A stretch of DNA of 64,000 bases from a virus (IMGVR_UViG_3300036792_000267:87378-151377); one strand, 5' to 3'. Positions 9,213 to 48,842 are shown, numbered from the stretch's first letter. The notes: generated by a model from the letters alone, not told the origin. Made by a program: numbers and translations.

Positions 9213-10075
9213 TGGTCGCTGCCCCAGTCGGCGCGTTCTTCCCCAACGAATTGTGGTACTGGAACGGAAACCCCCTCAATCAACCATATTGGAACATCGC
9301 CACGTTCGGGGGAAGCAGGTTCGGCCTGCCCACGCTGCGCGGCCAGGACTACGCAGTGCCTTACCGGGCCGGCCAGAGCTGGCGGGCCAAGTACCCCGAT
9401 GAGCGCACCATCACGCTCACCATGTGGACTGACAGCCAGATGTCGGCTAGCCAGTCTTACCCGGCAGGCGACCCGCGCCGGGCGTTCAACGACAACTGGC
9501 AGCAGTTGCGCGGGATGTTCTTCACCCGCGGTTCCCAGGGCAGCGTGCAAGGCCAGCTCACCCGCAACTGGTTCCTGACGGTCAGCGGCTCGCCGGTCAT
9601 GGTCCAGTCCACCGCCATGGCGGAGATCGCCGGCTCGATGGACCCGACGATGAACGGGCGGCTGAGTGCCGCGTTCTCCGTTGACCTGCTGCTGAACGAC
9701 CCGTACTTCTACGGCGGCGCACGGAACCAGGCCACCTCCGGCGGCGGGGCGACTATTAACGCGCTGGGCGAGGGCGTGGTGGGCGAGGGCTACGCCAGCG
9801 CGGTCAACGCCTTCACGGTGAAGATCACGACACCTTGCACCGTCACCAACTCCACCGCCGGGGTGAGCTTCACCCACACCGGGGCGGGCGTGGTGTCGTG
9901 GCCGGTCACGGTCGACGTGCTGCGCTACACCGCCACAGATAACGTCGGCAACAACGTGGTCGGCGGGCTGAGCCATGTCGGCAGCCGGATGTGGATGTGC
10001 CTGCTCACCGGCTCGAATACGATCTCGGTCAGCGCCGGCACGGCCACGTTCAACTGGCACGACTGCTACGTCTGA
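9212..10075 (+). CDS. Minor tail protein (distal tail/Dit-like)
   Basis: Immediately after TMP with TGATG overlap; ERTITL...DPYFYG motifs typical of siphovirus Dit proteins. Confidence 0.75.
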   Translation: MVAAPVGAFFPNELWYWNGNPLNQPYWNIATFGGSRFGLPTLRGQDYAVPYRAGQSWRAKYPDERTITLTMWTDSQMSASQSYPAGDPRRAFNDNWQQLRGMFFTRGSQGSVQGQLTRNWFLTVSGSPVMVQSTAMAEIAGSMDPTMNGRLSAAFSVDLLLNDPYFYGGARNQATSGGGATINALGEGVVGEGYASAVNAFTVKITTPCTVTNSTAGVSFTHTGAGVVSWPVTVDVLRYTATDNVGNNVVGGLSHVGSRMWMCLLTGSNTISVSAGTATFNWHDCYV

Positions 10076-38202: not shown

Positions 38203-38835
38203 GTGGTGGACGAATCGGTCGCATCCCTGGCAGACCCCTCCCTCCGGGGGTTTATCCGCGAGATCCGGCGTATTCTCGTCCATCCTGACCTGGGCCTGGA
38301 CCAGAAGCTCATCGCCGTGGCGGGCGCGGCGGACGAGCTGGCCCCTCCCCCGGGTCCCTCCCCGGCAACCCGGCTGGCCCTGATGCTGCGGCGCGGCGGT
38401 AAGCCGTTCACGCTGCTGGCCGCCGGGGTCGCCGGGGAGGAAGTCCGCGTGAAGCTTGACCGCCAGGAGACCCGGCCGCCGAACGACCGGGAGTGGCGGC
38501 TGCTGTCGCGACCCGGGCAGGTGCAGAGCCGGGCTGGCTCCCTGTACCTGCCCGGGTCCGGCCTGGTGGTGGCGGAGGTGACTTCCGTGGTGGTGCCGTT
38601 CCGCCTGGACGCCTACGCGCGCGCCGAGCTGAAGGCGGGGAAGGTGCCGCTGGGCGCGGTGCTCGCGGCCCTGCCGGGGGCACGCCGGGAGCCGCTGGAA
38701 GTCCGCGAGACCTGCGCCGGCCGGGTGCTGTCGGCAGCGCGGATGCACGCGGGCGGCTGGCCGGTGGCGCTGGCTACGGAGTCCGTCACGCCCGAGTTCA
38801 TCGCCCTACTTGACTCAAGTCAAGCCATCGCCTAA
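38203..38835 (+). CDS. Chorismate-lyase/UTRA-fold-like protein
   Basis: VAEVTSVVVPFRL...ELKAGKVPLGAVL...PVALATE resembles the chorismate pyruvate-lyase fold. Confidence 0.4.
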   Translation: MVDESVASLADPSLRGFIREIRRILVHPDLGLDQKLIAVAGAADELAPPPGPSPATRLALMLRRGGKPFTLLAAGVAGEEVRVKLDRQETRPPNDREWRLLSRPGQVQSRAGSLYLPGSGLVVAEVTSVVVPFRLDAYARAELKAGKVPLGAVLAALPGARREPLEVRETCAGRVLSAARMHAGGWPVALATESVTPEFIALLDSSQAIA

Positions 38836-39473: not shown

Positions 39474-40247
39474 ATGCCTGATGACCCGTTCGCCGCGCTG
39501 TACGCCGAGCACCTGCCGGCCGCGCGGCGCCTGGCCCTGGCCCTGGTGCCCGCCGACGCGGCCGAGGACATCGTGGCGGAGGCGTTCACGCGGGTGCTGG
39601 CGCGGCAGCTGGCGGGCGGCGGGCCTGACGGCGCGTTCCGCCCCTACCTGCTGGCTGCGGTGCGCAACCTGGCGCGAGACTGGCTGGCCGAGCGGCGCCG
39701 CGTCGCCCCCTCGCCGATCGACCCTCGCGCGCACCGGGTGCCAGGCGCCGGCGAGCTGGTGACCGCGGCCGAGGAGGCGGCGATGACCCGCCGGGCGTTC
39801 GAGTCCCTGCCCGGCCGCTGGCGCGCGGTGCTGTGGCAGACCGAGGTGGAGGGGCGCACGCCGGGCGAGCTGGCGCAGGTCTCCGGCATGACCCCCAACG
39901 CCGTGGCGCAGCTGGCGGCGCGGGCGCGCATCGGCCTGGCGCTGGCGTGGCACCGCGAGCGGGGCACGCAGGAGCGCATCACCGGGCCGGCCCCTGCGCT
40001 GGTTCGGCTGGCGGAGCGGAAATACCGGAAGACGCTTGACACGAGTCAAGCCGATAGCTTAGACTGTGACTACAGCAAGCGGAACGGACCAGAGGGCAGG
40101 CACCCGATGTACGCAGGCGAGTACTACGCAGACGGCGACAACTACTACCCCGGCTCCGATGACGACGAGCTGAGCCCGTTCGACCAGGCGATGAGCCAGC
40201 TGGCCGTGCAGGCCGCGCGCATCGCGCAGTTCGAGCAGGGCAACTAG
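39474..40247 (+). CDS. ECF-type RNA polymerase sigma factor (reading frame runs on through the next cassette)
   Basis: FAALYAEH...AEDIVAEAF...FRPYLLAAVRNL (region 2); AFESLPGRWRAVLW...ELAQVSGMTPNAVAQLAARAR (region 4). Confidence 0.8.
   Translation: MPDDPFAALYAEHLPAARRLALALVPADAAEDIVAEAFTRVLARQLAGGGPDGAFRPYLLAAVRNLARDWLAERRRVAPSPIDPRAHRVPGAGELVTAAEEAAMTRRAFESLPGRWRAVLWQTEVEGRTPGELAQVSGMTPNAVAQLAARARIGLALAWHRERGTQERITGPAPALVRLAERKYRKTLDTSQADSLDCDYSKRNGPEGRHPMYAGEYYADGDNYYPGSDDDELSPFDQAMSQLAVQAARIAQFEQGN
40035..40106 (+). promoter_or_regulatory. Cassette promoter/leader driving the small ORF and putative ncRNA
   Basis: CTTGACACGAGTCAAG; TTGACA-18-TAGACT; AGGGCAGGCACCCG-ATG. Confidence 0.8.
40107..40247 (+). 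CDS. Small acidic protein (46 aa)
   Basis: ATG after leader motif; MYAGEYYADGDNYYPGSDDDELSPF... Confidence 0.55.
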   Translation: MYAGEYYADGDNYYPGSDDDELSPFDQAMSQLAVQAARIAQFEQGN

Positions 40248-40249
40248 GC

Positions 40250-40993
40250 CCCGGCGGGCCGCCGACAACCTAAGCCCAAGCCAGTACCTGCCTGCGGGCG
40301 GGGTGCGGACATTGGCGGTGAGGCGGCCCGGCGGACAACTCCACAGAGACTTGGGGGCAACGGGACCCTGCAAGGCCAACGCCCTGCGTTGTGTCAAGAT
40401 CGCAACTTGGCGTCCTCGCGGGCTGGGGTCGGAAACCGATGGCCGTTGTCCCCTAAAACTCCCCGGGCTGTTGTATCGAGTACCTGGCGAACGCGTGAGC
40501 GACACAGGCAGGATTAAGTTCCAGCCTTTGGCAACACCGCTACGGACCAGCGAAACACGCGGCAGCCCGGGGGTTAGGCGGAGGGTAACCCCTGGCGGTT
40601 CTGGGTTACCTGAGTGCACCCTCCGATGAACCGAAGTGGGGCCGGGAGGCTCCAGTCGGCAGGCTGTCCTCCCGGCGCCCGCGCTAAAACTCCATAGACG
40701 AGGGGTCTCGTTCGAGGCGAGGCGGTACCCAGTCCGCCTTTACCTGCACTGGACGGCTTTCCGGCTCCGGCTGGCGGCAACCTGGCGGCCCTGATGCGCT
40801 TACAGCCTGTGCCCGTGGTCATTCCGCGGTCGCGGTACTGCGGCGCGGAAAGCTGCCAGCTCAATCCATCGTGGCTGACACGTAACGCAGGGCTTGGGGT
40901 TTGTGACCCGACAGTGAGCACTGCTCCCCCTCGCGAACGCCCTAGCGGATGTCTCGGTTGCCTGCCCTGCCCCGCTAGGGCGTTCGCATTTTT
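40250..40993 (+). ncRNA. Putative large structured ncRNA (~740 nt), family unrecognised
   Basis: No credible gene across 0.75 kb in a densely coding region; at least 10 helices with G-U pairs on the + strand, GNRA-type loops, long-range 40376-40396/40876-40897 pairing, terminal hairpin plus T-tract. Confidence 0.7.
40933..40993 (+). terminator. 16-bp terminal hairpin whose 23-nt loop is antisense to the leader motif
   Basis: GCGAACGCCCTAGCGG/CCGCTAGGGCGTTCGC followed by ATTTTT. Confidence 0.8.
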
Positions 40994-40995
40994 AT

Positions 40996-41056
40996 CTTGA
41001 CTTGAGTAAAGCACATGAGTACGCTGTAGCCAGGAAACCCACCGAAGGGCAGGCAC
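40996..41056 (+). promoter_or_regulatory. Cassette promoter/leader element
   Basis: CTTGACTTGAGTAAAG; 17-TACGCT; GAAGGGCAGGCAC-ATG. Confidence 0.8.
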
Positions 41057-41470
41057 ATGGAAATTGACATCACCGCGCTGCTGGCGGTCTCCGACGACGA
41101 GAGCCCGGACCTGACCGGGCTGCTGGAGGCCGTCGAGGCCGCGAGCAGCCAGGACCAGACTGCGTGGCTGACAGACAAGGGGCAGCGCATCGCGGCCATC
41201 GTGCCGGTCGACGTCGCCGAGTACCACGATGAGATGACTCGCCGCGTGCTGACCACGCCGGCCGGTCCCCGGGTGAAGTTCCCTGAGGTCACGGTGCAGC
41301 TGAGCGGAGGGGACGGCAGTACGGGCGTCATCATGGCCAAGGTTGCCGACGCGATGGGCGCCGCCGGCGTCGACAGGCGGGACATCCGCAGCTTCCGCGA
41401 GGGCATCCTCGCCTGCGAGAGCTACGAGGCCGTTCTCGCGCTGGCTCAGCGCACGGTCAACGTCGAGTAG
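41057..41470 (+). CDS. Phd/YefM-like N-terminal domain fused to a small phage domain
   Basis: TAWLTDKGQRIAAIVPVD is Phd-like; VQLSGGDG...SYEAVL C-terminus. Confidence 0.55.
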   Translation: MEIDITALLAVSDDESPDLTGLLEAVEAASSQDQTAWLTDKGQRIAAIVPVDVAEYHDEMTRRVLTTPAGPRVKFPEVTVQLSGGDGSTGVIMAKVADAMGAAGVDRRDIRSFREGILACESYEAVLALAQRTVNVE

Positions 41471-44067: not shown

Positions 44068-44334
44068 GTGAACGCCGCTACCGAGTCAGCCGAGTCCGCG
44101 CAGGCTGTCGGCGAAGCCGCCGATGCGAGCCCCTGCCTGGAAATCGGGGAGTCCAAGGTCTACGCCGGGCTGAGCCCTGACGGCGTGCTCGTGATTCGCG
44201 CCTACCCGGCTGGTGACACGCTGGTCGCGGTGCTGGTTGACGAGACGCTCGTGGCTGGCAGCGAGGTGGACTGGAAGCCGCGCGGCAGGCACCGTAGACA
44301 ACTTGACTCCAGTCAAGACAACGGAGAGGGTTAA
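44068..44334 (+). CDS. Hypothetical protein
   Basis: GAGGGGAG SD; degenerate promoter copy at 44002. Confidence 0.55.
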   Translation: MNAATESAESAQAVGEAADASPCLEIGESKVYAGLSPDGVLVIRAYPAGDTLVAVLVDETLVAGSEVDWKPRGRHRRQLDSSQDNGEG

Positions 44335-44462
44335 TCCTCTCTCGCCCGGGGTTGCCGTATGCGATACTGGGGGCGACCGGGCACAGCGTTATCCCCCAGT
44401 AGCGCGCCCTGGTTCCTCCTGCAGCCTCGCGGCTCCCCCGTCCGCGGGGCTGCAGTCTTTGT

Positions 44463-48614: not shown

Positions 48615-48842
48615 ATGACTGACGACGAGGTGACCGCGATCTTTCCGCTGCCCGGCGGCCTGGTGAAATGCGGCCTGCGCGCGGACCTGCCGAAGAAACA
48701 GCGCGTGCACGTGTGGGTGAGCCTGGGCGCCGACACCCGTAACAGGGGTTCGCACGGGTTTGCTGACGTCGAAGTGCGGGCGTGCCTGCGCTGCGGAACC
48801 GACAAGGCGCTACCGCTTGACTCAAGTCAAGCTAACGGGTAG
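48615..48842 (+). CDS. Hypothetical protein
   Basis: GGAGGGCAGGC upstream. Confidence 0.5.
   Translation: MTDDEVTAIFPLPGGLVKCGLRADLPKKQRVHVWVSLGADTRNRGSHGFADVEVRACLRCGTDKALPLDSSQANG

Follow-up and report, generated by a model that had tools for sequence, protein, structure and literature searches.

A predicted modular non-coding RNA of an uncultured soil phage with a terminator loop complementary to the leaders of many phage genes

The right 64 kb (64,000 nucleotides, referred to here as the window) of a 151,377-bp virus record from IMG/VR with direct terminal repeats and ~69% G+C (IMGVR_UViG_3300036792_000267:87378-151377) contains, at positions 40250-40993 of its + strand, a stretch of ~740 nt that very probably specifies a real structured RNA of an uncultured high-GC soil phage. 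Judged from sequence comparisons, this RNA is a new, undescribed family within a small clade of uncultured high-GC soil phages with genomes of ~125-152 kb. The best explanation, which is given a probability of about one in two, is that it is a multi-domain phage non-coding RNA (ncRNA) that combines a structured body with a terminator loop acting on the leaders of ~30 phage genes. This architecture has not been described for other large phage RNAs, and the mode of action is likely to be a variant of a known one.

Fold, non-coding nature and transcription unit

The + strand of 40250-40993 has a minimum free energy (MFE) of -378 kcal/mol compared with -338 ± 7.6 kcal/mol for dinucleotide shuffles (z -5.3, with 0/20 shuffles as good), and the - strand of the same region gives a z of only -0.7. 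Protein-coding signal is lacking by four measures. The G+C content at third codon positions (GC3), which is 0.85-1.0 in the coding frames of this genome, does not rise above 0.78 in any frame between 40250 and 41050; the alignment of the RNA with its relatives contains internal gaps of 1 and 2 nt, which would shift a reading frame; the substitutions are spread evenly over the three codon positions (29/26/35); and the five open reading frames (ORFs) that overlap the region on both strands have no match in Pfam. A protein-coding reading was rejected on these grounds, and the conserved ORF across the region that a preliminary description of this DNA had named as the finding that would speak against an RNA is absent.

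Known RNA classes were also searched. There was no match at the gathering score anywhere in the window to any model of Rfam 15, including GOLLD, ROOL, OLE, raiA, HEARO, RNAIII and all others, and a search of 39900-41300 at E<=10 gave only sub-threshold matches, such as the terminator-like ctRNA_pGA1 (25.5 bits vs 45) and ncS035 (21 vs 79), together with chance matches. ARAGORN found no tRNA or tmRNA in the 64-kb window. Tandem repeats are absent from 40030-41060, which contains merely four short two-copy direct repeats, and arrays of the CRISPR, TIGR or type III ToxI-like kind were rejected because tandem, near-identical repeat units do not occur there. The preliminary description had proposed a large and highly structured ncRNA on the + strand that belongs to no recognised family, is not a tmRNA, RNase P or intron and cannot be assigned to GOLLD or ROOL, and it had suggested an Rfam search and an analysis of covariation among homologues as checks. 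These proposals have held up: the first agrees with the strand-specific fold, the covariation described below and the promoter and terminator that bracket the region, the others agree with the absence of any Rfam family at threshold, and homologues with compensatory changes were found.

The homologues came from two sources, five related phage records of 125-152 kb in IMG/VR (G001-G005), which were recovered via the protein of the upstream ECF-like sigma gene and a core RNA pattern, and 13 soil metagenome contigs, which were recovered with a gapped form of the core pattern. The same layout is seen everywhere, a promoter followed by 0.4-1.3 kb without coding signal and then, in most cases, by a terminator, the next promoter and a gene. 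The unit lies behind the sigma gene in ~10/12 complete promoter-to-terminator loci, and two loci (L016 and L035) have another upstream gene. No cultured relative was found, because neither blastn with the RNA nor tblastn with the sigma and AAA_25 proteins gave a match among 50,697 phage records. A strict core pattern had 0 matches in 185,579 prokaryote genomes, a looser terminator-loop pattern had 120 chance matches and 0 real homologues in bacterial genomes, and the downstream protein P0002 found no relatives when used as a query. When other module motifs were scanned in viral contigs all of the new loci were due to chance, and a local blast gave only the known G001 contig.

It is hardly credible that the region is a non-functional GC-rich intergenic remnant, or a decayed gene, with helices that arose by chance. 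Although many spurious helices do form in GC-rich sequence, the z of -5.3 is confined to one strand, compensatory changes are well above their controls, the element is conserved across 6 phages and 13 contigs, and there is no coding signal.

The features that define the predicted transcription unit are as follows.

39474-40247, + strand: sigma ORF, ECF-like, with Sigma70_r2 and r4_2
40036-40065, + strand: predicted promoter, TTGACA-18 nt-TAGACT, 10/12 matches in a consensus scan, near the end of the sigma ORF
40093-40103, + strand: leader box AGGGCAGGCAC, in the 5' part of the predicted transcript, in this phage only
40107-40247, + strand: 46-codon ORF, GC3 0.85-0.92, in frame with the sigma ORF, whose tail it also forms
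40933-40994, + strand: intrinsic terminator with a 16-bp G+C-rich stem (40933-48/40972-87), a 23-nt loop (40949-71) and a U tract
40954-40971, + strand: anti-leader segment CUCGGUUGCCUGCCCUGC in the terminator loop, antisense to (C)AGGCAACCGAG and AGGGCAGGCA

With a predicted promoter and an intrinsic terminator the RNA has the makings of an independent transcription unit. The RNA proper begins at 40250 and the predicted primary transcript starts ~180 nt upstream, such that it would be ~920 nt in total in this phage; in the relatives a folded RNA module takes the place of the leader box and the 46-codon ORF. The terminator hairpin has a folding energy of -37.9 kcal/mol (z -7.1), and 7 relatives have an equivalent hairpin whose stem differs in sequence. 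Directly after it come another promoter (40997) and the downstream gene (41057). The idea that the region is a riboswitch or leader of that gene was rejected, since a terminator and a separate promoter stand between the two.

The -35 box of the RNA promoter sits within a 16-bp near-palindrome, CTTGACACGAGTCAAG, that is a candidate operator, and promoter and operator are found at the same place in all relatives. The combined promoter-operator pattern TTGACNNNAGTNAAG has 42 strand-matches (~25 sites) where 0 are expected.

A different type of explanation is that the region acts in cis, as a long 3' untranslated region (UTR) that stabilises or insulates the message of the sigma gene or of the small ORF, or is no more than a strong terminator between operons. 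The RNA does directly follow the sigma ORF with no terminator intervening, and a strong terminator is located just ahead of the next promoter. However, the RNA has its own consensus promoter, the copies at L016 and L035 do not adjoin a sigma gene, and a length of 400-1300 nt with a covarying, multi-domain structure and a universal core goes far beyond what a terminator or stabiliser needs. A cis-acting role is accordingly considered very improbable.

Several observations concern the surroundings of this unit. At ~25 sites between 30232 and 62287 of the window (for example, at 38810-38824, 44303-44317 and 48817-48831), a host-type promoter has its -35 box overlapped by the 16-bp palindrome CTTGACNNNAGTCAAG. 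These sites look like a promoter-operator regulon for a candidate repressor, analogous to the extended promoters of the start-associated sequences (SAS) in the Cluster K mycobacteriophages that are considered below. One of them begins a second promoter-to-terminator unit (window 44303-44462) of ~130-150 nt, which has no ORF and a fold z of -3.2 and contains GGUUGCC as well as an anti-Shine-Dalgarno-like segment, UUCCUCCU; from its sequence this may be another regulatory RNA. The sigma ORF has no stop before 40245 and reads in frame through the RNA promoter and the leader into the 46-codon ORF. The latter is equipped with a leader box and an ATG of its own, and this tail may therefore be made both as an extension of sigma and as a separate small protein. 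In L035, on the reverse strand, a 32-codon Cys-rich ORF (MANPQCTEDWC...) that has a ribosome site to itself is located between two RNA domains at ~9830-9940 of the reversed locus. This ORF suggests that the locus is able to take up small genes, as does the 46-codon ORF of this phage.

Domain architecture and covariation

Parsing the whole RNA by MFE is uninformative, as a sequence this rich in G+C closes spurious long-range helices. Domains were instead defined by span-limited folding together with an all-against-all comparison of the homologous RNAs. By these means the body of the RNA is predicted to be a chain of independently closed domains with single-stranded linkers of the ACAACU type between them, made up as follows.

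40251-40334, + strand: domain M0, closed by CCGGCGGGCCGCC/GGCGGCCCGGCGG, a local fold
40335-40350, + strand: linker 1, ACAACUCCACAGAGAC, predicted to be single-stranded
40351-40455, + strand: domain MB, closed by GGGGGCAACGG/CCGUUGUCCCC, the second helix of the preliminary description
40461-40573, + strand: domain MC, the core, present in 6 phages and 13 metagenome contigs
40574-40683, + strand: domain MD, with hairpins at 40574-40632 and 40636-40683, the fourth and fifth helices of the preliminary description
40684-40699, + strand: linker 3, CUAAAACUCCAUAGAC, of the ACAACU type
40700-40932, + strand: domain ME, closed by GAGGGG (40700-05)/CCCCUC (40927-32)

This modular build with linkers was not part of the preliminary description. 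The set of domains varies among the phages and MC alone is universal (CCUGGCGAACGC...CGGACCAG). MB is shared with L015, L029 and L026, MD with L002, L015 and L029, and ME with L003 and L027, and other phages have a 5' module that is absent from this one. ME contains an AGGCGG/CCGCCU hairpin and a phage-specific insert (~40750-40870); its ends are conserved in L003 and L027 (85-98% identity), it has a short form in L004, and direct reading shows that L023 retains its closing helix in the form GAGAGG/CCUCUC. The linkers number 27 in 12 homologous RNAs, where most of them lie between closed domains, and occur at 3.0 per kb compared with 0.6 per kb genome-wide, counting the hexamer alone. The MC hairpin of L002 carries the interior of M0 as an insert, with a match of 81% over 53 nt in a different context.

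Such a layout could also be that of a precursor, which is cut at the ACAACU-type linkers into several small structured RNAs with the anti-leader terminator hairpin among them. The domains are closed independently, are separated by A-rich single-stranded linkers and are reshuffled as units among phages, all of which a precursor would explain. Nevertheless, the linkers are short and variable in sequence, and processing of this kind is considered improbable. It would in any case be compatible with, and does not exclude, a terminator loop that acts on the leaders.

The helices were evaluated mainly with an alignment of MB-MC-MD from five phages, termed A2. Its consensus structure was derived from that same alignment and five sequences are few; read with this limit, 92.2% of the cells are standard pairs compared with 37-45% when the partners are slid by 1-3 columns, 23/77 pairs have changes on both sides compared with 1-7 in the slid controls, and 0/500 shuffles attain any of the five measures used. 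Helix 1 of this alignment (40353-63/40443-53) is 100% paired and has 2 pairs changed on both sides, while helices 11-13 of MD have 8, 3 and 2 such pairs, and the inner hairpin of this domain is changed on both sides in 8/10 of its pairs. Of these, helix 12 corresponds to 40641-49/40668-76. Double changes are also present in helix 7, an extension of the MC outer stem. When the alignment is read directly, 40579-85/40619-25 is kept as CUGAG/CUCAG in L015 and as GUGUGG/CCACAC in L002.

The core domain consists of an outer stem (P1) around a 6x6 internal loop (CGAGUA/CGAAAC), within which are found CCUGG-CGAAC-GCG-UGAG, a variable hairpin and CAACAC-CGC-UACGGA-CCAG. P1 is maintained in 15/15 homologues with clearly different sequences, examples of which are CCCAGGCC/GGCCUGGG, CCUCCGGGCC/GGCCCGGAGG and GCCACCCGG/CCGGGUGGC. 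Inside MC, RNAalifold pairs GCN-UG with CA-(C)-N'GC, and N:N', the third pair of helix P3, is G-C in 11 sequences, C-G in 1, A-U in 1 and A-G in 2. At the base of the variable hairpin (P4), 6 sequences have a pair that is changed on both sides. Most of the invariant letters of the core were required by the pattern that found the 13 metagenome loci, and their invariance therefore counts only for the six phages that were found by other means.

All of the helices listed in the preliminary description are present in the sequence, and they fared differently when compared across relatives. Compensatory changes support 40353-63/40443-53, 40457-74/40559-75 (tested as 40461-73/40561-73), 40579-86/40618-25 (tested as 40579-85/40619-25) and 40641-49/40668-76. 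The helices 40255-63/40322-30, AGGCGG/CCGCCU at 40720-39, 40770-78/40852-60 and UUCCGCG/CGCGGAA are either phage-specific or never vary. Three further proposals are not supported by the comparison. A CGC-GUGA-GCG hairpin within the core is CGC-CUGA-GUC in L003 and CGC-AUGA-GAG in L004, and the relatives keep GCN(UG) with (CA)N'GC. A pseudoknot between the CCAGU loop of the AGGCGG/CCGCCU hairpin and a downstream ACUGG finds no support in L003, which has the CCAGU loop without ACUGG downstream, or in L027, in which the loop is UGCGAAU. Finally, a ~20-bp long-range pairing (40376-96/40876-97) has no comparative support, as its strands are in modules that co-occur in this phage alone. Each strand is conserved where the other is absent (MB in L029; ME in L003 and L027), and in those phages CCUGC is available as a local partner for GCAGG of the 3' strand. 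The pairing does dominate the thermodynamic ensemble of this RNA, with a pair probability of ~0.9-1.0 across most of the helix, and on this prediction it may be a real contact that is specific to this phage.

Smaller segments also recur within the body. One sub-module (CCUAAGCCCAAGC...GGACAUUGGCGG) is present at 40268-40318 of the window and at 4780-4845 of L002, and another (GGCAGGAUUAAGUUCCAGCC) is present at 40505-40528, at the tip of the MC hairpin, and in a different domain of L023, as if these were portable tertiary-contact elements. The 5' half of the core motif (CCUGGCGAACGCG, 40483-40501) resembles the stretch that joins the last domain to the terminator (CCUCGCGAACGCC, 40929-40947), and the GCGAAC element that they share may be a common recognition feature. 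There are also resemblances, for which no claim is made, to an 11-nt tetraloop receptor (CCUAAG...AUUGG) and to a sarcin-ricin type of loop (AGUA/GAA).

The terminator loop and the gene leaders

The proposed link between the RNA and other genes of the phage is the leader box, AGGGCAGGCAC. This 11-mer has 27 exact copies on the + strand of the window (30285-60893), and with <=2 mismatches there are 105 matches where 48 ± 7 are expected. About 30 copies are located 1-6 nt before the ATG or GTG of small genes, all on the + strand, at 117.6-148.3 kb of the genome plus one at 1692; small + strand genes are tightly packed from ~30 kb to 61 kb of the window. The box is usually part of a longer leader, AACCGAGCGAAGGGCAGGCAC, and often comes after (GG)CAGGCAACCGAG near the predicted 5' end.

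The sole extended copy of the leader box on the reverse strand of the 151-kb genome is the loop of the RNA's terminator. This loop, AUGUCUCGGUUGCCUGCCCUGCC, has a complement that contains AGGGCAGGCA and GGCAGGCAACCGAG, and it forms a 10-nt Watson-Crick match to AGGGCAGGCA before ~25-30 gene starts and one of 12-14 nt to (GG)CAGGCAACCGAG at the 5' ends of leaders. In the predicted fold most of its 23 nt are unpaired. Among 8 homologous terminator loops of 19-25 nt the sequence UGCCUGCC is invariant; their stems differ yet all fold, with z values of -3.3 to -7.1. The five relatives have a start box of the same class on the early-gene strand, with 15-39 copies of GGCAGGCA compared with 0-6 for a reversed control, and the flanks of box and loop partly match as well, such that GGGCAGGCA is found in both the leader and the loop complement of G000-G002 and AGGCAGGCA in both in G004. 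At L029, GGCAGGCACC is present in the loop complement and in the box of its one downstream gene.

The explanation favored here is that the RNA would be transcribed rightward, as one molecule, from the host-type, operator-bearing promoter at the end of the ECF-like sigma gene and would stop at the intrinsic terminator. Its large, open terminator loop would then pair in trans with ~30 phage mRNAs that belong to the same promoter class, at their conserved leader and ribosome-binding box, and this pairing would set the translation or the stability of those mRNAs, most likely shutting off the class once the stable RNA has built up. The structured body would either make the RNA stable or have a second function, for instance in binding a protein or in self-assembly. 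The regulatory role of the anti-leader loop, taken by itself, is put at slightly under even odds from the sequence relationships just described.

Several points weigh against this explanation. The loop of G003 matches its own start box over 8 nt only. The calculated loop-leader duplex (-27.1) is a modest gain over random windows (-21.9 ± 5.3) and shuffled loops (-22.5 ± 2.1), in tests of duplex energy that discriminate poorly in this GC-rich composition. The transcript and its ends are predictions, and the RNA shares the promoter class of its supposed targets, such that a temporal switch is not obvious. The leader box could also be a site at the DNA level, with the reverse copy serving a DNA-binding factor. 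Lastly, a subgroup of relatives resembling G005 (L016, L028 and L035) has the core domain and the linkers and no anti-leader loop. Because core and linkers persist there without the loop, the body would have a role that is independent of the loop, which points to a second activity for the core together with its linkers.

The same subgroup is the main argument for a structured RNA whose principal job is not antisense. The RNA could be a scaffold or sponge for proteins that bind at the ACAACU linkers or at the conserved loops of the core, an RNA associated with RNA polymerase or sigma, or a self-assembling ornate RNA of the ROOL and GOLLD kind, and the loop would be a lineage-specific addition. 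The core has invariant internal loops that resemble a specific recognition surface, the linker motif is repeated, the ECF-like sigma gene is syntenic in ~10/12 loci, and ornate phage RNAs that make RNA-only assemblies are known (PMC12286853). On the other hand, the RNA has no similarity to ROOL, GOLLD, 6S or other Rfam models, no candidate partner protein has been identified, and the invariance of the loop in 8 phages, despite the drift of its stems, would be left unexplained. Such a role is thus regarded as unlikely, though a serious competitor to action of the loop upon the leaders.

Parallels in other phages and regulatory RNAs

A comparable arrangement is present in the Cluster K mycobacteriophages, in which a 13-bp SAS precedes 11-19 non-structural genes (Pope et al., 2011; PMC3203893). 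One copy in opposite orientation, not at a gene start, was also noted, and whether the reader of the SAS is an RNA or a protein was left open (Pope et al., 2011; PMC3203893). The papers considered here give no role for this reverse copy (PMC3203893, PMC11373665). Papers from 2024 and 2025 still refer to the role of the SAS as unknown; the 2025 paper makes no mention of antisense or non-coding RNA, and a term search of the 2024 paper on phage Adephagia did not find a mention of non-coding RNA (PMC11373665).

The genome of Adephagia (JF704105) contains 16 forward copies of the SAS and one reverse copy. The latter is in the 430-nt gap between gp92 and gp93, which has a fold z of -8.2 and in which the late transcripts reportedly initiate (PMC11373665). 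On the + strand at 48655-48715 the reverse SAS forms the 10-nt loop, CCUCCUAUCC, of a long hairpin, and this reverse-SAS hairpin is found in at least 124 phage records, nearly all of them of Cluster K mycobacteriophages. In six Cluster K representatives the loop is almost invariant, with one variant in Ekdilam, and covariation is seen in the outer stem across subclusters; Edugator has UGCCGGCCGC/GCGGCCGGCA as its outer stem and carries the hairpin at the left end of the genome.

The two systems are alike in three respects. Each has a private motif of 11-13 nt in a single orientation a few bases before the starts of many non-structural genes, a SigA-like promoter that includes an inverted repeat and precedes many of these genes, and a single reverse copy that is away from gene starts in the loop of a conserved hairpin. 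They differ in the motif itself, which is GGGATAGGAGCCC in Cluster K and AGGGCAGGCAC here, making them analogous systems rather than the same element, and in the location of the reverse copy, which is at the end of a 0.4-0.9-kb modular RNA here and in the gp92-gp93 gap in Adephagia. Cluster K shows the same layout in an independent and experimentally tractable phage group, which is no proof of function. A more general proposal, and a tentative one, is that the RNA is the trans-acting partner of start-associated leaders, where the loop, as antisense to a tag at the ribosome site, would steer ~30 genes, the reverse SAS hairpin of Cluster K would do likewise, and the body, with a second function of its own, would found a new class of ornate RNAs.

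Among well-studied regulatory RNAs the closest in design is RNAIII of Staphylococcus aureus, a molecule of ~514 nt that encodes hld and has a seed in its terminator hairpin. Both are long regulatory or putatively regulatory RNAs of many hairpins with their own promoter and terminator, both have a small ORF in the 5' part (hld in one, the 46-codon ORF in the other), and the C-rich hairpin loops of RNAIII, including that of its terminator, are complementary to the ribosome-binding regions of several mRNAs, just as an exposed loop here is complementary, at the level of sequence, to the ribosome-binding region of several mRNAs. RNAIII is described as a loop-seed RNA that lowers translation (PMC2837412). 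There is, however, no homology in sequence or structure and no Rfam match between the two. In contrast to RNAIII, the RNA described here is phage-encoded, larger and modular with ACAACU linkers, and its putative targets are ~30 mRNAs that have a single, engineered-looking leader in common instead of natural variants of the Shine-Dalgarno sequence.

GOLLD and ROOL often adjoin tRNA genes in phage genomes. Like them, the present RNA is large (>400 nt), highly structured and phage-associated, with variable peripheral elements, but neither covariance model matches it. It also lacks a neighboring tRNA gene, its neighbors being the sigma gene and small early-type genes, and it differs from both in its beads-on-a-string layout with linkers and in its antisense loop.

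Large structured RNAs outside the known families are rare, and GOLLD, ROOL, OLE and raiA each proved to be unexpected in architecture. The design seen here, in which one invariant core is accompanied by exchangeable closed domains strung on a conserved single-stranded linker, is an unusual one. The anti-leader loop also offers a concrete hypothesis for a question that has been open since 2011, namely, what it is that reads the start-associated sequences of actinophages, and the parallel in Cluster K makes this testable with Adephagia on Mycobacterium smegmatis. Should the loop prove to act on the leaders, these soil phages would possess a compact, programmable RNA switch for a whole class of genes.

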